IMG/VR virus record: IMGVR_UViG_3300022555_000004
Length of the DNA: 64,000 bases
Direction: 5' to 3' (one strand)
Origin: a virus
Taxonomy: Duplodnaviria > Caudoviricetes
Shown: piece after piece, positions 49,262 to 62,552 of the stretch
How the letters are laid out: each line of letters starts with the position of its first letter
How positions within the stretch are numbered: the stretch's first letter is position 1
Made by a program: the position numbers and the translations under genes
The notes under the pieces: generated by a model
Told to the model about the DNA's origin: nothing
The model's database searches: none
Seen by the model: the letters and a program-made list of their open reading frames with translations, nothing else

Positions 49262-50992
49262 TTATAATTGCTTCTCTATTTTTTCTATCATTTTAAAAAT
49301 ATCAAAAAAATATGCTTTTCTGGCTTCTTCAATTGATATAGTTGTTTCGGTAACAATTTCAGGTGTCGCAGTTTTTGGAATATGAATCCACGGAACATCA
49401 AAATCTTTACTTTCGGTTACGGCATTGATCCATGAGGGCTGATTCGATGGGTCAATAACCAAATCCCATGTAATCATGAAATAATCATCATTGACATATC
49501 CATCGCCTTCATTGACTGTTCCAAGACCCCGACTGGAAATACCAATGCGTCCTTCTTTGATTAGTGTTTTAGCGATTTTTCCCATAGGGGTATCAATGAT
49601 TTTAGCTTTTCCAATCAGGTCATTCCCTTGCCATTCAAGTTTTTCAATAAGATGTGAAATGCTTTGTGGTGTAATTTCCGGGCAATTACCTGTAAAGAAC
49701 GATACACTATCATTGTTTCTTACATAAAAATTTTCGTTTTTTACTTGAACACAGTAGACATTACCCTCATAGTATTCTTCCGTAATTTTCATGAACCTAT
49801 TGTCGGGGTATATGCCCTTAGTTGTCATTATTCTCAAAAAATATAAGGGATGTTTATTTTCCGATTTTATAATCCTATCGGCAAATACATAATCTTGTTT
49901 ACATATTTCAACAGTTTTTCTAACAGACAACCCACATTTAAAAGCTATTTCATGGAGATCATCTATCAATTTTTCTGATGTAGAAAATACATCTTTTAAC
50001 TTATCGTTATTTAAAAATCCTCTACCATCGCCTATGCCAAACCAATATAACATTTCTTCTAAACAATCAACAGATAAATTTTTAAATTCGGCGGGTATGT
50101 ATTTATTATAACAATTGCCCAATGGTAACAGAACTTTTGCAAGTCTAACATCTGTAAGTCTAAATGTTATTTTATTCTCATACACTCGTTCTTCCCATAC
50201 CATATCATCGGGAAACCCCTTTAAAAGTGATCGTATTAAATCTGATTTCTCACCGATATTTTGTGCAATACAAACAGTGTTTTTTTCGTTTCTTCCTTTT
50301 GCTAACCAACCTTCTGATAGATATAAGCCCAAGAATCCCACAAAAATTTTCATATCAATAATACTATCTGATGAATATATATTTTTATTTCTATAATACG
50401 ATAATTCATCAATATCAACACCCTTTAGAACATAAACATCGTCTTCACTATTTGAGTGCCACGTTCCGGTTTTGGGGATATATGATTTTTGAATTTTTAG
50501 TGTTTCTGGTGTTCTAACTTCCTCTGATGTAACAAAATAAGGAGTTTCATATCTATTAAATAACAGATGTCGGTGGTTGGGCGTGAATGACATATTAAGT
50601 TGTCTACCAGAGAAGTTAATCATGTTGCCAACAAAGGGAATTTCAATTTTTCGTTTTATTTGGTGATATTCAATATTTCTGGTATCTGTGTTCAATGTTG
50701 CTATAATTTCATTATCTGAAATATTTCTAATTTCCTTCCACCCATCTTTTGTTAACACTTCTGTGTCACCAAATACACAACTTGGATGTGATAATTCGCC
50801 CCATAGGCATTTATTAGCTACCTTTTCCATAAGTTTATCAACTTCACGTTCAAGGGTGGCTTTCTTATAAATTCTATTATTGATATTTTTATTTTCAGCA
50901 GAAGAAAAAACACCTTCTACGAAAATATTTGAATCATCAGATGAATTTACTTTGATGTTTTGTGATACTTCTGTTAAAAGTTTCATTTTCAT
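49262..50992 (-). CDS. gp21: Prohead protease gp21 containing an intein
   Basis: VEGVFSSAENKNINNRIY, WGELSHP, GKAKIIDTPMGKI, GISSRGLG, WDLVIDPS. Confidence 0.93.
   Translation of the reverse strand: MKMKLLTEVSQNIKVNSSDDSNIFVEGVFSSAENKNINNRIYKKATLEREVDKLMEKVANKCLWGELSHPSCVFGDTEVLTKDGWKEIRNISDNEIIATLNTDTRNIEYHQIKRKIEIPFVGNMINFSGRQLNMSFTPNHRHLLFNRYETPYFVTSEEVRTPETLKIQKSYIPKTGTWHSNSEDDVYVLKGVDIDELSYYRNKNIYSSDSIIDMKIFVGFLGLYLSEGWLAKGRNEKNTVCIAQNIGEKSDLIRSLLKGFPDDMVWEERVYENKITFRLTDVRLAKVLLPLGNCYNKYIPAEFKNLSVDCLEEMLYWFGIGDGRGFLNNDKLKDVFSTSEKLIDDLHEIAFKCGLSVRKTVEICKQDYVFADRIIKSENKHPLYFLRIMTTKGIYPDNRFMKITEEYYEGNVYCVQVKNENFYVRNNDSVSFFTGNCPEITPQSISHLIEKLEWQGNDLIGKAKIIDTPMGKIAKTLIKEGRIGISSRGLGTVNEGDGYVNDDYFMITWDLVIDPSNQPSWINAVTESKDFDVPWIHIPKTATPEIVTETTISIEEARKAYFFDIFKMIEKIEKQL
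49685..50779 (-). mobile_element. gp21 intein (365 aa, LAGLIDADG)
   Basis: HPS|CVFGDTEVLT...FTPNH...FFTGN|CPEI; FLGLYLSEG and WFGIGDG motifs. Confidence 0.9.
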
Positions 50993-51831: not shown

Positions 51832-54762
51832 CTAAAATCCAGTATCTTCTTGCCCGCCCGGTGGCATACTCATATCAGGTGCTTGCTCTTCGCCAGTACC
51901 CATTCCCTGCATCTGCATAGTAATCATACCAGGTGCTATTCCACCGGCACCATAACTATCAGCAGCATCCAAAACTTCATCAGGTGGGAAGTATTTCTTA
52001 TCGTTTTTAAATCCTTCTCTATTTTCTAACAATTCATCTTCCGTCCAATGTAAATATTTCTTTACAAGATACGATTTAGAAAATTCAGCATTTTGACATA
52101 GAGCATTATAGTTTTGAAATGCCTGTTCCAAGAACCCTTGATGCATTTGTTCTTTATAATGTGATGGTGGGTTCATTCTAATGGTAAAACTATTTTCTGT
52201 CAAACTATATTGTTTTTTGATTCCTTTGAAATCAAGATGTAACAAGAATAAATCGACCAATTCATTACAGAACTTTCGTTGTTGACGTTCTAGGAATTTT
52301 GCCCATTTTATTTCATCTCTTGAAATTTGGCCTGATCCTGTGCCGCCAAACATTACTTCTTGTCCTTGTTCTACACCTTGGGTTATTCTTGATATAGGGT
52401 ATTTCAATGCTCTATATAATTTATGACTAAAATAGAAAATATCTGTTAGTTCAGTAAATCCAGCAGCATTTCCACCAACACTCGTTATGTCAGATCCACG
52501 ACCTTCAGATGAATTCTTCACGAATATACCTGCTGTCATGGCAAAGTTATGATTATTACCATTATTTTTAATTGTAAGACAACCTGTATCTTCTTTCACA
52601 TCAAGATATTCCACTTTTACTACTTTGTGATTTATAACTATACTCTGTTTGAATTCTGTATATGTTTTACATCCAAACTCTTTATTCAAAATTGTATAGA
52701 AACTTGATTTTCCTAAATGGGTTTTATGGACGTTTTTTATATTTTGATTTATTTGTGACCAATGTTCTATAAATTCTTTGTTGTTTGATAGATTTATCAA
52801 CATTTCATCAAAAGATGGATTATTCTTTACATACTCATAGACAATGTAGTGTGCTGTCTTATAATCAGTTTTAGATGATTGGACATCACTCATATGATTT
52901 GCAAATTCCTCATTTTTCCAACGATTTGCTGATGATTGTGAAGATTTTTCTCTGTATTCACAATCCGTTGCCCATTTATTTTGTATACTTTCTTTTACTT
53001 TATCATTATGGGCTTGTGTCTTTGGCTTACTGACATTTTCATAGAATATTTCATAATTATCAGACCAATTCTTTTTCATCAGTGTAGACATTTTTATTCT
53101 TTCATCGACATCTTCAAATCGTTTATACATCGCTTTACTCGCCGCGATTTTTTGTTTTTCCCTATTTTCCGGTTTATTCAATGCTTCTAACATTGGAATA
53201 TGCGATTTTCTTTCGACATTGGAATTGTGATGAAGGGTTATATGTTCCTTTATTGGCAATGATGTTAAATTATTAGGTTCATTATTAAACCTATTGAAAT
53301 CCATGTGATGTATGGCATTACCTCTTTTTTGCATAGGCCCAAATTCTCTATGTGCATACTTCCATTCATTGTCTTTCATGTCATAAAACATAGTATAGTC
53401 ATTGGTGTTTTTATTCAATTTTTCTGTTTTTGAATAAAATGGCATCAGTGATATACCCTCTGTCAAGTGTATTGCCTCTACTTCATTTCCGTCTCTGGTA
53501 ACAAATTTGTGGTCGGGTGTGCAATCAATATATTCATTATTATCAAGAGTAACTCTAACCATTTCTGCGTTCTTTCGAGTAATGCCGGCCCATTCTATTT
53601 CACCTGACATTATTTTACCAGATTTTTGGTCTATTGAGTAAACATAATTTTTCTTACCATTATCATGTTCATTGATGATGTCAGAAAGTGGTAAAATACG
53701 ACCATCAATAAGGTTGATTTTATTGGATAATCGGAGGCACTGTGGCATAAAATAATTTTCAAGTATATTGAATACTTCTGGTTCGTTTGTCAATGATCCT
53801 GTTTGTGGGTTATATGATTGTTTTTTGATAAACGATTGTTTTATTTTTTCCACAAATTTCATGGCTTTATCACGTGGCATAGCCCCAGTATCAATCTTGA
53901 ATACTAATCTTTCAGGTGAACGGATAAGTCTATAGATAACAACGGATGTTTCCAATAATTTCAATTGATTGTATGGAACTTTGGCTTTTTCTAAATATCC
54001 AAGAATATTAAGTTTTGTTGCCCCATAAATGCCGTAGTTTATGAATCCAATTTGGGCAGGTTCAAACATGATAAGTTTGCCTTGTTGAACGTCTTTCAGG
54101 GCCATTTCTCTACTAGGCGGGCGTCTAAAATTAGGAACGAGATATTGATAATAACCCATAATTCGTCCAGTTTTTGGCTCATATTCATAGTCCATTGTTT
54201 CAGTAGGAAGCTTTTTGACAGCAAGAATTCCTTTGTTCTTGTTGTTGAGATCTATTACTCTTTCATAAAATATTTTTCCATCAATAAGATATGTTCTCAA
54301 CCAATCCCACAAGGTATCATTGACATCAATTCGTTCATAGAATAATGATTTGAATTCCCTGTATAATATTTTACTAATATTGTCGTTTTCAGAAATTTTG
54401 TCATCGGTAAGATCTAATGATAATAGATTTTCGTGTTCATCTATATCACACATTTCATTACAGGCGTCTTCAATAACATCCGATATTTCAGGATATTCTG
54501 ACATTTTTCTATATTCAATTACTCGTTGATATTCATTTTCAAAAGCTCTGTTGATATAAGAATTATAGAATGAATTGAAACTACCCATTCCAGTGGCGCC
54601 ATATCCGCCCATTTGTAACATGGCAACGTCTTCAACACCTTCACCTGTACGATTTTTAAAATCTGAAGCGGTCATGTTGGCTTCGTCATCTTTACCTTTG
54701 AAGGCTTTTAGACTTTCATCGACTCTATTTTTTCCTGTGAACACATCATACCATGCCATCAA
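51832..54762 (-). CDS. gp20: Portal protein gp20 containing an intein
   Basis: YRKMSEYPEI, YLIDGKIF, GYLEKAKVPYNQLKLLETSVVIYRLIRSPERLVFKIDTG, YRALKYPISR, DEIKWAKF. Confidence 0.95.
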   Translation of the reverse strand: MMAWYDVFTGKNRVDESLKAFKGKDDEANMTASDFKNRTGEGVEDVAMLQMGGYGATGMGSFNSFYNSYINRAFENEYQRVIEYRKMSEYPEISDVIEDACNEMCDIDEHENLLSLDLTDDKISENDNISKILYREFKSLFYERIDVNDTLWDWLRTYLIDGKIFYERVIDLNNKNKGILAVKKLPTETMDYEYEPKTGRIMGYYQYLVPNFRRPPSREMALKDVQQGKLIMFEPAQIGFINYGIYGATKLNILGYLEKAKVPYNQLKLLETSVVIYRLIRSPERLVFKIDTGAMPRDKAMKFVEKIKQSFIKKQSYNPQTGSLTNEPEVFNILENYFMPQCLRLSNKINLIDGRILPLSDIINEHDNGKKNYVYSIDQKSGKIMSGEIEWAGITRKNAEMVRVTLDNNEYIDCTPDHKFVTRDGNEVEAIHLTEGISLMPFYSKTEKLNKNTNDYTMFYDMKDNEWKYAHREFGPMQKRGNAIHHMDFNRFNNEPNNLTSLPIKEHITLHHNSNVERKSHIPMLEALNKPENREKQKIAASKAMYKRFEDVDERIKMSTLMKKNWSDNYEIFYENVSKPKTQAHNDKVKESIQNKWATDCEYREKSSQSSANRWKNEEFANHMSDVQSSKTDYKTAHYIVYEYVKNNPSFDEMLINLSNNKEFIEHWSQINQNIKNVHKTHLGKSSFYTILNKEFGCKTYTEFKQSIVINHKVVKVEYLDVKEDTGCLTIKNNGNNHNFAMTAGIFVKNSSEGRGSDITSVGGNAAGFTELTDIFYFSHKLYRALKYPISRITQGVEQGQEVMFGGTGSGQISRDEIKWAKFLERQQRKFCNELVDLFLLHLDFKGIKKQYSLTENSFTIRMNPPSHYKEQMHQGFLEQAFQNYNALCQNAEFSKSYLVKKYLHWTEDELLENREGFKNDKKYFPPDEVLDAADSYGAGGIAPGMITMQMQGMGTGEEQAPDMSMPPGGQEDTGF
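52513..53739 (-). mobile_element. Portal intein (409 aa) carrying an HNH-type endonuclease
   Basis: MPQ|CLRLSNKI...CTPDH...IHHMDFNRFNNEPNNL...GIFVKN|SSEGRG. Confidence 0.9.
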
Positions 54763-54771
54763 TCATTACCT

Positions 54772-56208
54772 CTATTTTGTATTGGACGTTCCTTCAAGTA
54801 ATTCTATTATTCTATTCATTGATTTTTTCAATTCCGATGTTTCGCCTTTCAACCCATTGATTTCATTCATAATATTGGGTGATGTGATAACCTCTACATT
54901 TGATTTTTCCGGCAATATTGAACGTGCCTGATCATTGAGTCCACCTGAATATGATGTATTATAACAATGACATCCAAAATCCAATGATGGATCCAATTTC
55001 TTAATTTCATGTGGTGTTCCTTCTAGGTAACACATATTATTACAAGTACACGATCCTTTCATATTTCCGCCCATGTTTGAGATATTAGGAAATTTAAAAT
55101 TATTTACTTTCAACAATTTATGATAGTATCTAATAGCATTTCCAAGTCTATCCATCCATTTACAATAAACATCTGGTGGTGTGTTTATAGCTCCGGTCAA
55201 ATCAAAGTTTACAGCATAACAAGACATATCACATAAATTACCATACCACTGGCAATTACGACATTTATCTTGAACTGGATATTGCATAAAATCTATAAAT
55301 TGTCGCCTGAACTCTGGTCTTAAAATACCATCGTCTATTGTGCCCAAATAAGCTTTATCTTGCCATTTTCTACCATCATATTTGTTGAATCTATGACAAG
55401 GATAAATAACGCCATCAACTGAAATTGCTGAGTAAAATCTACCAGCACCGCATGGGAAAGACGGTATTTTTTTATTTCGTTCAATGTTCAAAGCGCCATC
55501 ATCAAGATGTTTTACATCTAATGGTAGTCCTTTTTTTCTTGTTTCGATCATAAAGTCGGCCAATAACATCATTTGTTCTTCGGCCACATCAAAATCTTTT
55601 TCAGTCCAATCCATTTCAAAAACTGGGGAAAACATTTGTGATCTAACACCTTGATTATAGAAATATTTGATACTCTCCATCAATTTTCCCATTGTATCGG
55701 GTGTTGGCGCCATCCTTGTTCTAATAAATGGTATTTTTTCAATAATATGTGGTAAATTCTTCATAATATCATCGAAACTGCTACCATTCTTTATGGCGGT
55801 TGGTCTGTATAAATCTTGAACTTCTTTTATGCCATCAATAGACATCATAAAATATGATCTATGGTCGTTCATCCATTTGACAACTTCTGTCGTCATCAAT
55901 GTTCCATTGGATGTACCGCCAATGGATAATTTTTTCTTTTCTTTGTTGGCTTTTTCTAAAGCATAATCTGATAATCGTTTCATCAAGTCAAATTTTAAGA
56001 ACGGTTCACCGCCCCACCAATCCAATGATAAAACATCGGATTGACTTATTTCGTCTTTGAATATCCAATCTATCGTTTTGATGCCTTGTTTAAGGGTCAA
56101 ATCTCTTTTGCCTATACCATAAGTAAAACAATACTTACATCTAAGGTTACATTTTTCTGTAATGTCAACCGTACATTTGTTGATGGGAAAATCTAATTTT
56201 TTTAACAT
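54772..56208 (-). CDS. Radical SAM/SPASM maturase-like enzyme with a C-terminal CxCxxxCY-containing tail
   Basis: CNLRCKYC, WWGGEPFL, TSNGTL, SIDG; SPASM CGAGRFYSAISVDGVIYPCHRF...CRNC..YGNLCDMSCY. Confidence 0.92.
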   Translation of the reverse strand: MLKKLDFPINKCTVDITEKCNLRCKYCFTYGIGKRDLTLKQGIKTIDWIFKDEISQSDVLSLDWWGGEPFLKFDLMKRLSDYALEKANKEKKKLSIGGTSNGTLMTTEVVKWMNDHRSYFMMSIDGIKEVQDLYRPTAIKNGSSFDDIMKNLPHIIEKIPFIRTRMAPTPDTMGKLMESIKYFYNQGVRSQMFSPVFEMDWTEKDFDVAEEQMMLLADFMIETRKKGLPLDVKHLDDGALNIERNKKIPSFPCGAGRFYSAISVDGVIYPCHRFNKYDGRKWQDKAYLGTIDDGILRPEFRRQFIDFMQYPVQDKCRNCQWYGNLCDMSCYAVNFDLTGAINTPPDVYCKWMDRLGNAIRYYHKLLKVNNFKFPNISNMGGNMKGSCTCNNMCYLEGTPHEIKKLDPSLDFGCHCYNTSYSGGLNDQARSILPEKSNVEVITSPNIMNEINGLKGETSELKKSMNRIIELLEGTSNTK

Positions 56209-56229
56209 TTTTACCTCACATTTTTATTT

Positions 56230-57900
56230 TTATGATGGTTCTGAATAACAAACGTCATCACATACACATTGATTATATAAGTAACAAGTAGCATCACATG
56301 AGCATCCGGTATCAGAATAACAAGACGTATTACATGTGCATAGTGTATCTCCATGGCATGTTGCATTACAACTACATGTTGACTGGTGATAACATGTTGC
56401 ATTACATGAACATATTGGTTCAAGATAACAGTGGTGGTCACATATACAAATATTATCACCATAACATGTTTGATAACATGAACATGGTGTAATTCCATGT
56501 CCGGTGCCATAACATGTGCAGGACGATTCTCCATCACATGTGCCATCACATGTGCATGATGGTAGACCATATTCAACTGTATCACAAGCGCATACTGATT
56601 GAATATAACACAAATTGTCACATGTACAGTTTAGTGATACGAGATATGTTGTAAAATTACACGATACACATGCTGAATACCCATAACAAGGGCCATCACA
56701 TGTGCATGTTACTTCTTGATAACACATTTTATCACACGTACAGGTATATACTCCATCATAATACATTCCTTTACTACACATAAAATCCGATTGGCACCCG
56801 CTCCAGCTACCATAACTGATAGGGTTATCACACGTACATCCTGTATATCCGTATTGTGTAGTATTACATTCTGAACATGGTGTATTGCCATAACATGTAT
56901 CATCACATGTGCATGTTTGGGTTATTCCATATTGTGTATCGTCACACGTACATGGACTAGAATAATATTTTGTTCCATCACAGGTACAAGCGACATAATT
57001 ATAACAAGGGCCATCACATGTGCAAGAAGCATACCCATAACAAGGGCCATCACAGGTACATGTAGATATATAACCATAACAAGGGCCATTACATGAACAA
57101 TGTGAGTATTCTGTTTCATCACACGAACACGATCCGCCGTAAAATACCATGTTACATGTGCATGCTACGTATGTATAACATGTTGCGTTACATGTGCATG
57201 GTGTGTCACCATAACATGTATTGTTACATGAACACGATACATCACCATAACATGTATTGTTACATGAACATGGGGAGTCTCCATAACACGCATTATCACA
57301 TGTACAAACGGCTTCGTTTGTATCGCGAAGGGCTTTTATAATCCATTTTACATATGTATGTTTAGGTTGGGGTTGTGTTACGGCGGTTCCCCATTGATGT
57401 GTTGCTGACGTACCAACGGAATGTGTGGAATCACGCCCTTTTAGGTATTGACTTCTATAATCAGGAAGATTAAAATGACCATTTATATTTACTGCACCAT
57501 ACATGTATTCTAAAACATGGAACAGATCAGTATATACATTTATATCAACAGATGCGCCATTACATTCAAGAAATCCGGTTGGTGGTGTTTCTGTTGCCCA
57601 CGCTAAAACGGTTCCAACCGGAAGAACAGAACCCCCTGTTGGTGTTTTCCATTCACCCTGCCCGTTTAGAAATCGTGATCTACTATCCGGTAATTGTGGA
57701 GCGAGACCATTTTTTGTTGTTGTTACTACTGAATTATCAGCAACTTCTACCCATGAGTCAACATCTCCGTAGTATAATTTTTGGGTATCAATTGTATATA
57801 TTACTCTGCCTTCATCGTTGGCAGATGACGTAAATGCCGGTTTAGTTGTCACCCTTTGTATTTTTACTGGGCCTCTAGCATCAATTTCATGGAATTCCAT
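56230..57900 (-). CDS. Tail-collar-domain fibre protein with about 29 Cys-rich repeats
   Basis: Collar motif LPVGTVLAW...PTGFLECNGA...YTDLF...FNLPDYR, then C-x-C-[DN]-x-x-C-Y repeats to the C-terminus; TATAAATA at 57935. Confidence 0.85.
   Translation of the reverse strand: MEFHEIDARGPVKIQRVTTKPAFTSSANDEGRVIYTIDTQKLYYGDVDSWVEVADNSVVTTTKNGLAPQLPDSRSRFLNGQGEWKTPTGGSVLPVGTVLAWATETPPTGFLECNGASVDINVYTDLFHVLEYMYGAVNINGHFNLPDYRSQYLKGRDSTHSVGTSATHQWGTAVTQPQPKHTYVKWIIKALRDTNEAVCTCDNACYGDSPCSCNNTCYGDVSCSCNNTCYGDTPCTCNATCYTYVACTCNMVFYGGSCSCDETEYSHCSCNGPCYGYISTCTCDGPCYGYASCTCDGPCYNYVACTCDGTKYYSSPCTCDDTQYGITQTCTCDDTCYGNTPCSECNTTQYGYTGCTCDNPISYGSWSGCQSDFMCSKGMYYDGVYTCTCDKMCYQEVTCTCDGPCYGYSACVSCNFTTYLVSLNCTCDNLCYIQSVCACDTVEYGLPSCTCDGTCDGESSCTCYGTGHGITPCSCYQTCYGDNICICDHHCYLEPICSCNATCYHQSTCSCNATCHGDTLCTCNTSCYSDTGCSCDATCYLYNQCVCDDVCYSEPS
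56233..57306 (-). repeat. Degenerate ~36-nt (12-aa) tandem repeat, C-x-C-[DN]-x-x-C-Y-G-x-x-x
   Basis: About 29 units counted by hand, roughly 77 Cys in ~358 aa. Confidence 0.9.
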
Positions 57901-57987: not shown

Positions 57988-59199
57988 TTAAATATTTATT
58001 ATTCCGGGCTGTTTATAGCCTTCTTTTAAAGAGGTTAAATGGGCAATAGACCAACACACTTGTTGTTCGTTTTTGTCCGAAGTGTATTCTCTCATGCTTT
58101 GAAATCTAACTGGCGTATCAATATATTGTGCCCAATTACTATTTGTATAGTATAAAAACGAATTAGAATTCCAAAATGAAACATGTGTAGGATCTTGAAA
58201 TGCTCCACGACCATCGGTTGATGGTACTTGAATAAAGGCATAACCGCCGGGTGCTAAAACTCTATATAATTCTTTCATTGTGTGCAAAGGGTCGAATAGA
58301 TGTTCAAATACATCAAATGCTCTTATTACACCAATGGAACTATCTTCAAACGGCCATCTTCCGTTTAAGTCACAAATAATATCAGCATCTTTTATATCAA
58401 CTGATTTATATCCGTCTTGTTTATTCAATCTACCACCTAAGTCAAGCGCTTCTAGTGTGTTATCATTTGACCATTTCAAAGCCAATTTTTCAATATATTT
58501 GTCATATAATGGATAAACACCGTTTTGAATTTCTTGATTTCGTTCTAACCATGTATTATCACCATGAACACGATACACGTATAGACCTTTATCAATATGA
58601 TGAAATTTGGTAATTTGATACATTCTACACATCAAATCTTGGTCATCAAGAACTTTTAATGATGCATCATAACCGCCTGCTTGATTATATATTCTTTTTC
58701 TAAATGCTCTAAAATGATCCGGTGCATACCATATTTTTGATACACTTGCTGGTGTTGGTGGGAATGATATAGGTTCATCTAAAATGAACCCTTTATATAT
58801 TGTTTCACGATATTGCCATCCATGATCAGAATTAAATCGTTCCAATTTACCCAATTCCATATTTGTATATAATGAATTAGAGTAAACAAAACCAACTTCT
58901 TCATCAACGAAGGCTTTTCGTATTTCATCAATTGCGTTCGGTGTCAATAGATCATCATGGTCTAATTCAACTAAAATATCACCGGAGCAGTTTTCACATG
59001 CGATTTTTTTATATTGACCGACACCAACAACATCAATTGACATTGTGATATTTTTAACACGGGCGTCATTGAAATCTATTGGTTCGGCACCATTATTATA
59101 AACAATAACCCATTCGTCAAAATCTTGGTCTTTGATACTATCATAGACTTCTTTCAGGTACTTCGTATTGTGTGTTGGTGTAAAAATGCTTAACTTCAT
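57988..59199 (-). CDS. GT2 glycosyltransferase fused to a class I SAM methyltransferase
   Basis: LSIFTPTHN, ELDHDDLL, DDQDLMCR, LYVYRVH; then LDLGG, FDVFEHL, YRVLAPGG. Confidence 0.88.
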   Translation of the reverse strand: MKLSIFTPTHNTKYLKEVYDSIKDQDFDEWVIVYNNGAEPIDFNDARVKNITMSIDVVGVGQYKKIACENCSGDILVELDHDDLLTPNAIDEIRKAFVDEEVGFVYSNSLYTNMELGKLERFNSDHGWQYRETIYKGFILDEPISFPPTPASVSKIWYAPDHFRAFRKRIYNQAGGYDASLKVLDDQDLMCRMYQITKFHHIDKGLYVYRVHGDNTWLERNQEIQNGVYPLYDKYIEKLALKWSNDNTLEALDLGGRLNKQDGYKSVDIKDADIICDLNGRWPFEDSSIGVIRAFDVFEHLFDPLHTMKELYRVLAPGGYAFIQVPSTDGRGAFQDPTHVSFWNSNSFLYYTNSNWAQYIDTPVRFQSMREYTSDKNEQQVCWSIAHLTSLKEGYKQPGIINI

Positions 59200-59233: not shown

Positions 59234-60238
59234 TTAATTTTCAGATATACGTGTTCGTAATTTTATCAGATATCCATCCTCCAATGTAGTGGCTTCAAGT
59301 AAATCTGGTGATATTTTTTCTAACCAAGTATCATAAACTTTTTTATCAACCAATACCTTCAATGTTTTATATCCAGCATCTATACACCAATTTTTAAATA
59401 ATTTACGGCTGATCATTAGTTCATCATAAGTCAACAATTTTAAAACGGGTTTTCTTGAAAATGGTGATGAGTAGTCTAGTTCTGTAACTGTATCTCCCTG
59501 TCTTATAATGAAACAATCAACAGGAATATTATTTTTATAAACATTCAAAACAAGAGCGTTATCCAAGTATAACCATTGATTCATAAAATTTATGGCCATT
59601 GTAGCTCGATTCCAATTTGACTTATTCAAATTATCAAATATCCAATCAGTATCCGTTGTTTGTTGTAGACTTATGTCACCTTCTGAATATATTGTATCTC
59701 TTGATGGGATTGTAATATTTTGTTCTGAAATAAACCAGGCTGGTCTTTCCACACTAAAACATTTTATTTCTGTTGATGTTTTAACTTCTAATATACCCTC
59801 ATAATATTTTAATATCAATCCGTTTTGATCCATTATATCAAAAACTTGTTGTTTTGTATATTTATGGGTTGACATAATACGATATAAATCATTTGATGTT
59901 GGTACATCCCAACATAAATTTGGTTTTATTTCAACGTGTTCATTTATAACAATTGTGTCTGGATGTTCATCAAATATTATTTCATGATTATGTGACATAA
60001 ATTCATCGGGGATTCCTTTGGTTTTGAGGTAATTCCAAAGTGTTCTAGTGTCTTGTATTTGATAAATAATACCATCTTTAACTTTTAGACGATTTATGTT
60101 TTTTATGACATTAGATGAAACATAATCATCGTCTATTTCAATAAATGTATGGTTTGGATAAAAATCTTTATTGAACAAATCTGCATTAATCAACAATTTT
60201 GGAACATTATTTTCATCCGATATAAGAATTTTTTTCAT
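59234..60238 (-). CDS. Hypothetical protein, paralog of 61461..62552
   Basis: Shared KPNL.WDVPT..DL, TKQQVFD.M.QN, WLYLD.ALVLN.YKN. Confidence 0.7.
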   Translation of the reverse strand: MKKILISDENNVPKLLINADLFNKDFYPNHTFIEIDDDYVSSNVIKNINRLKVKDGIIYQIQDTRTLWNYLKTKGIPDEFMSHNHEIIFDEHPDTIVINEHVEIKPNLCWDVPTSNDLYRIMSTHKYTKQQVFDIMDQNGLILKYYEGILEVKTSTEIKCFSVERPAWFISEQNITIPSRDTIYSEGDISLQQTTDTDWIFDNLNKSNWNRATMAINFMNQWLYLDNALVLNVYKNNIPVDCFIIRQGDTVTELDYSSPFSRKPVLKLLTYDELMISRKLFKNWCIDAGYKTLKVLVDKKVYDTWLEKISPDLLEATTLEDGYLIKLRTRISEN

Positions 60239-60302: not shown

Positions 60303-61442
60303 CTATTTTGTTTCTTCATATTTTATTCGTTTACTATATTTTTTACGAAGTTCCATTAATCTTGGAATAACAGATTTATATACTTCACAAAATGGTGATT
60401 TTGTATCAAATCGACCAAACGTAGCTAACTTGTCATTTGGACATCCTGATTGACATATATCTTTAATATCGCAAATTTTACATTCTTGTGGAGCATCAGG
60501 TCGTTTATATGCCCATCTAAAATTATCATTTCGCATTAGCTGGTTTGGATGTTCAGAATAGATGGTTCCTGCGGTTACTTCATGATTTCTTAAGCAAGGG
60601 CCAACAGATCCATCTGGTCTAACGGACAAAACTCCTCGGCCACAGAAATATCGTGAATAAATATCAGGGTATTTGTCCCAATTTTGCGGTAATATATAAT
60701 CTTGTACATAATCATAACTAACGTGATACCCTCTGGACGAATATTTCTCCATTACATCTAGTATAGAATGGTATTTTTTAATCAGTCTTTCTTTGTATTC
60801 TTGATTATTTCCTTCAAACATATTTCTATAGAATCTACATCTAAAGTTATTCTCACACGCTATTGTAACAATTTCCTCTACTCTAGTTCCAAGTATATTT
60901 TCATCTGTAAGTACGCATGTGTTAGTTAAATATAATGCTTCGGAATTCTCTTTGATAATCATTGCTCTTCGTAAATACTCTTGTGGGGATAGATCAGTTA
61001 TATTAAAATGCCAAGAATAAAGGTATCTCAAATCATCCCAATTAACTACATCTAATAAATCACCGTTTGTGAAAATACCACCAGTAATAGGTAAAGAATC
61101 TTTAGCTATTCTATCCATCACACGTTTAATTCTATCCGTTCTTAACAAAGGCTCGCCACCCAAAAATATTAGTAGAAATTGTTTTTTATCTGATTCTTCA
61201 TATACTTTAGGCACCCATTCGACAAAATCTTCAAACATTTCATCAGACATTTCGCCAGAATGTTTTCCTTGCGCTTTTATGTAACAAGAAGGACACGTTC
61301 TAGTACAATAATAAGATAAGTATACCGCTATCCATGACATTGGCATAGATTCCCAACTAGGAATTTTACTTACTTTACGATCTTTATATTTATCAACTGT
61401 TGTAGTTAAAGAATAAATAGTTCTTGGTAATGTTTGTTTCAT
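60303..61442 (-). CDS. Second radical SAM/SPASM enzyme
   Basis: CTRTCPSC, FLGGEPLL, FTNG; SPASM CGRGVLSVRPDGSVGPC...CKICDIKDICQSGCP...C. Confidence 0.9.
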   Translation of the reverse strand: MKQTLPRTIYSLTTTVDKYKDRKVSKIPSWESMPMSWIAVYLSYYCTRTCPSCYIKAQGKHSGEMSDEMFEDFVEWVPKVYEESDKKQFLLIFLGGEPLLRTDRIKRVMDRIAKDSLPITGGIFTNGDLLDVVNWDDLRYLYSWHFNITDLSPQEYLRRAMIIKENSEALYLTNTCVLTDENILGTRVEEIVTIACENNFRCRFYRNMFEGNNQEYKERLIKKYHSILDVMEKYSSRGYHVSYDYVQDYILPQNWDKYPDIYSRYFCGRGVLSVRPDGSVGPCLRNHEVTAGTIYSEHPNQLMRNDNFRWAYKRPDAPQECKICDIKDICQSGCPNDKLATFGRFDTKSPFCEVYKSVIPRLMELRKKYSKRIKYEETK

Positions 61443-61460: not shown

Positions 61461-62552
61461 CTAATTATTATTTTCAAATATATCTAAATTACGTTGTATA
61501 GGATTTGGTATTACAACGATCCTACTTCCAACATTAGTTCCAATATATGTAATACTATCTTTCCATAATTGTACTTTAGCAAGATCTAATTGTATTTTAG
61601 TAGGATCTACAGGATTAACTAATACTTTAGTATCAATACAAGATATCAATGAATTAAAAATTCTTTCATCAATATACATTGTAGCATTTACATATCCCGC
61701 CGAGGACATCCACTTATAAAATAAATGCCTCATGGTTTTAGCTTCATCAAAAGACATCTTTGTTAGTAAATAATTTATGGAAAAAGGTTTTGTATAATCA
61801 AGCTGTGTGTCTTTACCATGTCTTATAATACAACAATCAACTAATACACCATTTTTATACCCATTAAGAACAAGAGCATCATCTAAATATAACCATGATT
61901 CTATCTCACGTATAGCTAAATCTTTTCTACTCCAATTAGACGCATTTAGATTATCAATTACCCAATTTGCATTAGATCCTTGTTGAACATATAAATCTCC
62001 AACCGTATATGTTGTATTTCTTGACGGAATAATAATTCTAGTATCTGTAAAAAACCAATCCGCTCTTTCTTTACTAAGAGGAATTGTTTCTATTGATGTT
62101 TTTATTGCCAAAATAGCATCGTTCCATTTCATCACTAACATATTTTGATTCATCATATCAAACACTTGTTGTTTGGTAAATCCATTTTGTATAATAATAT
62201 TTAAATCTTCTCCTGTTGGCACATCCCAATATAAATTAGGTTTTATATCAACACGTTCATCAATATTCGATGTATTTGGTGGTTCATTCAATATAGTGTC
62301 TTCTTTTTGTGATAGATATGTTGATTCTTGCCCCTTGTCTTTCAGATGTGACCAGAGGTCACGTTTATTTTTTATTTGATATATGTGGCCATTTATTATT
62401 TTTATATTTTCTGTATTTTGGGCAACAATATGTGATATGGTATTATCTACTTCAACATATGTGTTGCCCGGATAATGTGATATATTAAAATTGCTGGTTT
62501 TTATCACACCATTCGCATGTCCGTCTGAATCAATCAATAAATAATTTTTCAT
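61461..62552 (-). CDS. Hypothetical protein, paralog of 59234..60238
   Basis: Same shared motifs as its paralog; follows the collagen fibre gene. Confidence 0.7.
   Translation of the reverse strand: MKNYLLIDSDGHANGVIKTSNFNISHYPGNTYVEVDNTISHIVAQNTENIKIINGHIYQIKNKRDLWSHLKDKGQESTYLSQKEDTILNEPPNTSNIDERVDIKPNLYWDVPTGEDLNIIIQNGFTKQQVFDMMNQNMLVMKWNDAILAIKTSIETIPLSKERADWFFTDTRIIIPSRNTTYTVGDLYVQQGSNANWVIDNLNASNWSRKDLAIREIESWLYLDDALVLNGYKNGVLVDCCIIRHGKDTQLDYTKPFSINYLLTKMSFDEAKTMRHLFYKWMSSAGYVNATMYIDERIFNSLISCIDTKVLVNPVDPTKIQLDLAKVQLWKDSITYIGTNVGSRIVVIPNPIQRNLDIFENNN

Follow-up and report, generated by a model that had tools for sequence, protein, structure and literature searches.

Peptide-modifying radical S-adenosylmethionine (SAM) enzymes usually locate their substrates through an N-terminal RRE domain, which binds a leader peptide. 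The closest described relatives of the enzyme studied here are the maturases of the CteB/CteA (SCIFF) and PapB/PapA (freyrasin) systems. In CteB, an open iron on auxiliary cluster I (Aux I) takes a substrate Cys (PMC6231123), and in PapB and Tte1186 the cross-linking Cys is held at an auxiliary cluster (PMC10177961). In this study, we analyzed P0001, a radical-SAM (rSAM)/SPASM maturase gene of a freshwater T4-like phage, located in a stretch of 64,000 nucleotides of Caudoviricetes DNA (IMG/VR record IMGVR_UViG_3300022555_000004), hereafter named the window. Past its SPASM domain, P0001 has a C-terminal extension of about 125 residues carrying units like those repeated in the fibre protein encoded next to it. 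A literature search retrieved no paper on a radical-SAM maturase bearing the motif of its substrate and none on a phage Cys-repeat fibre/rSAM system; a cyanophage paper does no more than name an rSAM maturase among "antibiotic synthesis" genes. The features of the enzyme and the fibre are as follows (labels beginning with P and L are our own, for proteins and for related loci).

54772..56208, minus strand: rSAM/SPASM maturase gene P0001, 478 amino acids (aa), PapB/CteB-like, without an N-terminal RRE.
56128..56151, minus strand: CX3CX2C radical-SAM cluster motif (C20, C24, C27), read from the sequence and near-invariant in ortholog alignment A1.
55153..55458, minus strand: SPASM domain, residues 251-352, with seven Cys (CteB alignment; AlphaFold2 (AF2) predicted local distance difference test (pLDDT) >90).
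55060..55152, minus strand: poorly conserved linker, residues 353-383, ending at M383 (conservation 0.36).
54937..55059, minus strand: conserved 41-residue Cys module, residues 384-424 (alignment A2; conservation 0.58).
55015..55050, minus strand: unit 1, CTCNNMCYLEGT, residues 387-398, a 3-Cys fibre-type unit (position matrix and hhalign).
54943..54972, minus strand: unit 2, CHCYNTSYSG, residues 413-422, a 2-Cys fibre-type variant (position matrix).
54784..54879, minus strand: C-terminal amphipathic helix, residues 444-475, with a heptad pattern (AF2 pLDDT ~85-96; heptad test).
56230..57900, minus strand: fibre protein P0003, 556 aa; its gene stops 21 nt short of the rSAM start.
57448-57615, minus strand: tail-collar domain of P0003, residues 96-151.
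56233-57306, minus strand: about 29 Cys units of period 12, residues 199-556 of P0003, consensus C-T-C-D-x-T-C-Y-G.

The initial annotation had pointed to two copies of the neighbour's repeat motif in the enzyme's tail, after the SPASM domain, and the translation and profile comparisons bore this out. Positions 54949-55050 of the minus strand encode residues 387-420 of P0001, holding CTCNNMCYLEG and CHCYNTSY(SG), and both units come after C349, the last SPASM Cys. The fibre repeat underlying both is C-x-C-[ND]-x-x-C-Y. On a position-specific scoring matrix (PSSM) derived from 26 fibre units of P0003, unit 1 scored 30.2 bits, with genuine fibre units spanning 20.9-37.2 bits, and unit 2 scored 14.2 bits; the highest score elsewhere in the window was 9.8 bits (~18,500 positions). 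None of 20,000 shuffles of the Cys-rich P0001 attained 30.2 bits, and 35 attained 14.2. Alignment of the ortholog tails against the fibre units with hhalign gave a probability of 92.8% (P 3.9e-7, 10 columns). Unit 2 is a 2-Cys variant (C-x-C-x4-Y) that is present in fibre arrays too, often close to their ends. PSSM, hhalign and ortholog conservation thus all place a substrate-type sequence in frame with the enzyme. Since no fibre protein matched the whole 41-aa module in an exhaustive profile search and a local hmmsearch, the likeness between tail and fibre is at the level of the unit only.

The body of P0001 belongs to the radical SAM superfamily: the CX3CX2C motif, which in this superfamily binds the SAM cluster within a partial TIM barrel, is present, a Pfam scan found Radical_SAM (PF04055) over its cutoff (E 1.9e-12) together with Fer4_12, and all Foldseek matches were rSAM enzymes, the closest solved structure being CteB (5wgg, E 1e-24) and the next anSME. 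AF2 folded residues 1-370 with a pLDDT >90. The Pfam SPASM match was sub-threshold on its own (18.2 versus a cutoff of 21.5). SPASM enzymes have seven or eight C-terminal Cys for two auxiliary [4Fe-4S] clusters. Membership of this subfamily is shown by the seven-Cys set (residues 253, 271, 316, 319, 326, 330 and 349), in which each Cys pairs with one of CteB in the phmmer alignment and is invariant or nearly so in ortholog alignment A1. The top NCBIfam model was the PapB ranthipeptide maturase (NF047865; 222.6 bits, residues 13-344), below its equivalog cutoff of 340 bits, followed by SCIFF, nif11, QhpD and CXXX-repeat maturases; the SCIFF maturase model (TIGR03974, CteB) reached 149 bits against a cutoff of 425. 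The phmmer alignment paired residues 13-350 with CteB residues 100-436. Because residue 13 aligns with CteB residue 100, the ~99-residue N-terminal RRE of CteB is missing from P0001, and everything past approximately residue 352 is extra. With the equivalog cutoffs missed and no RRE, P0001 is therefore a relative rather than a member of the CteB and PapB families. By homology, it would be expected to bind substrate Cys at an auxiliary cluster likewise. PapB substrates contain Cys-X3-Asp, and the products are thioethers from Cys S to the Asp beta-carbon; the fibre units, C-[ST]-C-[ND]-x-x-C-Y, include an [ND]-x-x-C arrangement.

Our preferred reading, to which we give a probability of about 40%, is that the tail is an autonomous substrate-type module outside the catalytic fold, which the enzyme recognizes and probably cross-links, tying the enzyme to the Cys-repeat fibre system. 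The PapB/CteB-like active site would most likely form Cys-to-carbon thioether links in the fibre units. The same site would also take the cassette of the enzyme itself, either in cis or between molecules paired through their helices, and would probably cross-link it. The piece composed of module and helix would serve the fibre system as a small partner protein, and its fusion to the enzyme, together with a free copy made from an internal start, would keep the RRE-less enzyme with its Cys-repeat clients.

The module consists of one 3-Cys and one 2-Cys fibre-type unit with a conserved acidic linker between them, and is followed by a variable linker and the amphipathic helix. For residues 377-443, the AF2 pLDDT was <50 when the whole protein was modelled and 45-55 when the tail was modelled alone. 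The module is thus predicted to be unfolded on its own; this low confidence speaks against an ordinary folded extension and gives no positive model. The initial annotation had allowed that the tail Cys might be ordinary ligands of auxiliary clusters within an extended SPASM fold. The analysis does not support this: the SPASM set is complete without the tail Cys, the CteB fold stops about 17 residues past its last SPASM Cys, and the five tail Cys are surplus to the seven. In addition, the tail lies beyond the CteB fold, has low pLDDT in both contexts, and occurs in natural variants with 2-3 Cys. The coiled-coil end proposed in the same annotation stood in part. A confident AF2 helix covers residues 444-475, and 7 of its 8 a/d positions are hydrophobic in P0001, a pattern equalled by 3 of 500 shuffles; the end is a putative coiled coil.

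Conservation of the tail motif in orthologs, the check set beforehand, came out positive. Among 40 aligned homologues (28-59% identity), the 41-residue module is kept in 33-35, with fixed spacing and the pattern S-C-x-C-x-N-M-C-Y-x-E-G-T-x-x-E-[IV]-x3-D-x6-C-x-C-[YN]-x-[TA]-x-Y-x-G. In alignment A2 of the module, C, C, N, C, C and Y are invariant, and M, C, Y, E, E, D and G are present at ≥90%. Mean conservation was 0.58 for the module, on a par with SPASM (0.59), the core reaching 0.53, the flanking linkers 0.36 and 0.32 and the helix 0.29. A profile search with the module across 1.84 billion proteins retrieved 27 clusters only, and the matches inspected were without exception rSAM enzymes (several of which contained inteins), C-terminal rSAM fragments or free-standing tail proteins. 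The sequence link drawn between the enzyme and its putative substrate is real; orthologs do keep the tail, and its Cys are not those of the SPASM domain.

An IMG/VR scan gave 18 orthologous loci, and the tail takes four forms. The majority of orthologs have the full module and helix; others have the module without the helix (L002_6986, the L092 enzyme, P0139, P0143 and P0133), unit 2 and the helix (L006, L008, L014 and P0039/40/42), or the helix only (L002_5660, L005, L011, L013 and L016). The unit-2-only variants hold 2-3 Cys. Module and terminal helix are optional, independent pieces, each lost or reduced several times. In one locus (L002:5660-8242), two tandem maturase paralogues carry one the helix only and the other the Cys module only, as if the tail elements had been split between them. 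Neither the number of fibre units nor the presence of a second rSAM enzyme correlated with tail type across the related loci. In a tree rooted on bacterial homologues without a tail, full tails are found in both major clades and the reduced forms are nested among full ones, so the tail is probably ancestral to the phage family and was repeatedly trimmed. About 10 tail-state changes are needed overall with the three tail-state groups pooled, and the starred branches force at least 4 to 6 per single group.

This distribution bears on whether the tail is a functionless relic of recombination between the fibre and enzyme genes. Adjoining repeat DNA could seed illegitimate recombination of this kind; against it, the module is conserved in orthologs down to ~30% identity and in both major clades, at the level of SPASM, and intact free genes persist. 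We regard such a relic as extremely improbable, and a recent read-through or relic origin was rejected, the tail being ancient and placed at the end of the gene far from the fibre repeats.

The same conservation island, in which five Cys, invariant or almost so, keep a fixed spacing and are joined by the conserved E, T, E and D of the linker, would also suit a metal or Fe-S mini-domain. The five Cys and the acidic residues would then be ligands of Zn or of a fourth cluster, serving for instance electron transfer or stability, and the likeness to the fibre would reflect a shared C-x-C-x3-C spacing or a distant common origin. C-x-C is typical of metal-thiolate proteins, and the tail units are more hydrophobic and constrained than the fibre units and do not track fibre variants. 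However, the natural unit-2-only variants have too few Cys for a cluster, AF2 gave no fold in the full-length or the isolated context, the fibre-unit match reaches the non-Cys positions Y8 and N5, and the spacing of the tail is unlike that of known Fe-S motifs. A metal site is thus rather doubtful.

The tail units, which on our preferred reading would be handled as substrate, form a separate and tighter subtype when compared with the fibre units. Position 2 is S/T in the fibre and I/V in the tail. Position 4 is N (58%) or D (28%) in the fibre, and Y or N in the tail. Four other positions of unit 1, all variable in the fibre, are fixed or nearly so in the tail: N at position 5 (invariant), M at position 6 (91%), E at position 10 (94%) and T at position 12 (83%). 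The Cys and Tyr of the tail units are retained at 97-100%.

The frequent Y in place of the fibre's N/D4 is what an autoinhibitory pseudo-substrate might show. The tethered cassette would fill the peptide cleft and cap the open iron of Aux I until displaced by fibre repeats, without being turned over, and the benefit would be less uncoupled SAM cleavage and less oxidative damage in an aerobic host. With seven SPASM Cys, as in CteB, Aux I should have an open site to which a substrate Cys binds (PMC6231123, PMC10177961), the module lies between flexible linkers and is predicted to be disordered, and it is dispensable in several lineages. Yet the reactive-type Cys and the Tyr are kept rather than replaced, and an untethered copy, as provided by the free genes and the probable internal start described below, would be a weak inhibitor; in one lineage it would have no target, as no rSAM gene lies nearby on the short L088 contig. 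We consider this form of inhibition, and the benefit attached to it, unlikely.

Further evidence that bears on the preferred reading came from tails without an enzyme. Module and helix occur as a stand-alone protein of 104-109 aa in two phage lineages, and the window itself has a candidate start for such a protein:

L088:3001-3330: P0124, a free tail of 109 aa, found on 5 contigs, 92 nt downstream of a gene for a 513-aa collagen-like fibre.
L092: P0134, a free tail of 104 aa, immediately behind the gene of a window-type fibre.
55060-55062, minus strand: candidate internal start M383 (ATG), with the Shine-Dalgarno (SD)-like GGCGGA at 55066-55071; it would give a 96-aa tail protein, M383-K478.

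Both free proteins match the fused tails of the window's clade end to end. No rSAM coding sequence was found upstream of P0124 in the L088 contig, which is short. In L092 (124-2854), the order is rSAM (module, no helix), a Cys-repeat fibre of 358 aa that shares its N-terminus with the window fibre, and the free protein with module and helix. This arrangement looks like the window-type fibre/rSAM cassette minus the catalytic core, with the tail open reading frame (ORF) intact. An ESM Atlas look-up with the free tail protein returned nothing above noise. As a side observation, a gene for an H-x-G-H nucleotidyltransferase-like protein lies near the Cys-repeat or free-tail genes in three related phages (L081:600-1469, L092:5041-5853 and L088:4363-4707).

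In the window's clade, a Met is kept 2-4 residues ahead of the module, usually after Gly-Gly, despite the poor conservation of the linker; this Met is absent from other clades. The DNA behind this Gly-Gly-x-Met reads as an SD-like GGAGG-type sequence followed by ATG (55060-55074 in the window; also L001 and L094-L097), and the free-standing tail genes begin at the same point. We computed the SD/anti-SD pairing energy for all internal in-frame Mets of seven clade genes. M383 reached -5.7 kcal/mol, the best value among the 22 internal Mets of the P0001 gene (2 just upstream of the module and 20 others). The pre-module ATG was the strongest internal site in 6 of the 7 genes, the single exception being L093, with energies of -5.7 (window), -10.2, -10.3, -11.6, -10.2, -7.1 and -3.3 kcal/mol (L093). 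For comparison, 0.8% of the other internal Mets (n=123) attained -7 and 4.9% attained -5 kcal/mol, and genuine starts in the window ranged from -5.6 to -7.1 kcal/mol. The tail is therefore probably also made alone, and these sequence features suggest that the 96-aa product is translated separately in the window's clade. Of the three functions suggested in the initial annotation (self-modification, an autoinhibitory pseudo-substrate, co-assembly of the enzyme with the fibre repeats), pure autoinhibition in cis becomes somewhat less likely in view of the free-standing tails, the probable internal start and the independent loss of module and helix; a module that works as a separate protein too, either a substrate or a co-assembly handle, becomes somewhat more likely.

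The internal start also opens a bolder possibility, which we hold to be rather unlikely. The nested maturase gene would yield the enzyme and a free two-unit "mini-fibre"; the enzyme's own tail and the free copies would be cross-linked and held through the shared helix, and the product would join or prime a Cys-stapled fibre. If true, this would be the first autocatalytic fusion of a radical-SAM enzyme with its substrate, as well as the first enzyme brought to a virion fibre by a substrate-mimicking handle.

The surroundings of the orthologs agree with a partnership between enzyme and fibre and also permit another role for the tail. Cys-repeat proteins of the same unit type are encoded near most orthologs, not always adjacently; in L001, 22 kb separate the Cys-repeat gene from the enzyme gene. 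Fibre-assembly proteins are encoded just downstream of fibre genes, as for T4 gp57A/gp38 and Tfa, and this is where the tail-bearing gene, or the free tail gene of L092, is found. The tail could thus be a fibre-assembly chaperone or cap, in which the cassette, left unmodified, pairs with units of the fibre and acts as a template or an additional rung while the helix sets the chain register; fusion would only put the enzyme on the nascent fibre. The heptad pattern of the helix would fit, as would the tendency of unit 1 toward the last units of fibre arrays (its CY-x-E feature is found in 4 of 11 terminal fibre units versus 11 of 92 overall, a weak signal). On the other hand, the 22-kb distance in L001 does not suit a chaperone, and the free tail of L088 follows a collagen-like fibre without Cys units. 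Binding to the fibre is conjecture, and radical-SAM chemistry requires unfolded units, which makes a folding template fused to the enzyme awkward. A chaperone or cap seems to us unlikely.

Several observations weigh against a substrate-type module recognized by its own enzyme. At least five tail reductions or losses occurred in enzymes that still lie beside Cys-repeat proteins, and the tail is therefore accessory, not essential to the enzyme family. The top non-Cys residue of the fibre unit, N/D4 (86%), is Y in about half of the tail units and almost never D; if N/D4 were the cross-link acceptor, many tails would be non-reactive. The tail also ignores lineage-specific fibre variants, as the L007 fibres use C-x-C-x-G-x-C-N and the L007 enzymes still carry NMCY. 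Neither structure predictor placed the module anywhere. A complex prediction with core 1-376, module 378-430, three 4Fe-4S clusters and SAM gave a score of 0.12 and a mark of 0.32, values that speak neither way on binding. Among the strong SD sequences, that of the window's own M383 is the weakest; the internal start is read from sequence, and the chemistry of enzyme, fibre and tail is in each case putative.

A tail serving as built-in substrate or as docking handle would represent a new way for such enzymes to engage protein-sized repeat substrates, since the P0001 phage family has no RRE and no leader and instead carries a conserved copy of a substrate unit on the enzyme tail. It would also provide a ready minimal substrate, either the 41 residues of the module or the 96-aa free protein, for the fibre/radical-SAM chemistry. 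The probable internal start, if true, adds a nested gene to a maturase. Nested in-frame genes are, to our knowledge, known mainly from phage head assembly.

Other genes of the window and of the related loci were also noted. A second rSAM/SPASM enzyme is encoded in the window:

60303..61442, minus strand: P0004, without the tail motif (top PSSM score -2.2).

P0004 homologues are found in 7 of 16 distinct related loci. In the window, P0004 is flanked by genes for two paralogous proteins (59234-60238 and 61461-62552), which had no Pfam or PHROG match and, across the 18 related loci, no homologue. A GT2 glycosyltransferase-methyltransferase fusion (57988-59199) is encoded upstream of the fibre gene, and a 43%-identical copy occupies the same position in L018 (4636-5856); this fusion may be part of a fibre-modification set. 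Small Cys-repeat proteins ending in K-Y-A-P-[DG]-x-W-[LM] are encoded in L002 (3622-3954), L013 (484-891) and L016 (708-1445), each beside a helix-only rSAM paralogue; their shared ending may be a C-terminal recognition motif, and the proteins a substrate class of their own. Over the fibre repeats, long ORFs in other frames or on the opposite strand (56211-56621, and frames over 56230-57900) encode His-, Val- and Met-rich sequences; they were rejected as genes and are by-products of TGY-rich repeat DNA. The portal and prohead-protease genes that come next downstream of the maturase (51832-54762 and 49262-50992) are far longer than usual and contain Hint/endonuclease-like inserts, which are probably inteins. 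Orthologous maturases also carry inteins, two in P0133, beside CX3CX2C in P0007 and within the SPASM Cys motif in P0135, which fits the intein-rich character of this phage group.

Compared with known systems, P0001 has in common with CteB and PapB the core fold and the Cys set (CX3CX2C and seven SPASM Cys), and the substrates of all three are Cys-rich with repeated motifs. Unlike CteA and PapA, the putative substrate here is a virion fibre protein of 556 aa that has no leader, and the 125-residue substrate-like C-terminal extension of P0001 is absent from CteB and from the PapB model. Borosin precursors of the OphMA type fuse a methyltransferase to its own C-terminal substrate (PMC8429565). 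As in P0001, enzyme and substrate-type peptide follow one another in a single chain after a linker, and split versions with a free substrate exist in other lineages, as do the free tails here. Borosins differ in enzyme class and chemistry, and in P0001 the main substrate would be a separate large protein, the fused copy amounting to just two units; moreover, borosins do modify their own fused peptide, and in P0001 such self-modification is putative. In protein kinase pseudo-substrates (intrasteric regulation), a tethered substrate-like sequence has its reactive residue replaced, whereas the P0001 tail keeps all Cys and Tyr and only the N/D position is often changed. In lambda C/Nu3 and P2 gpO, the C-terminal part of an enzyme is also made as a smaller protein from an internal SD and ATG, and the shared part mediates co-assembly. 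Unlike these proteases, P0001 is a radical-SAM maturase, and its internal start is deduced from the conserved SD and ATG and from free-standing homologues of the tail.

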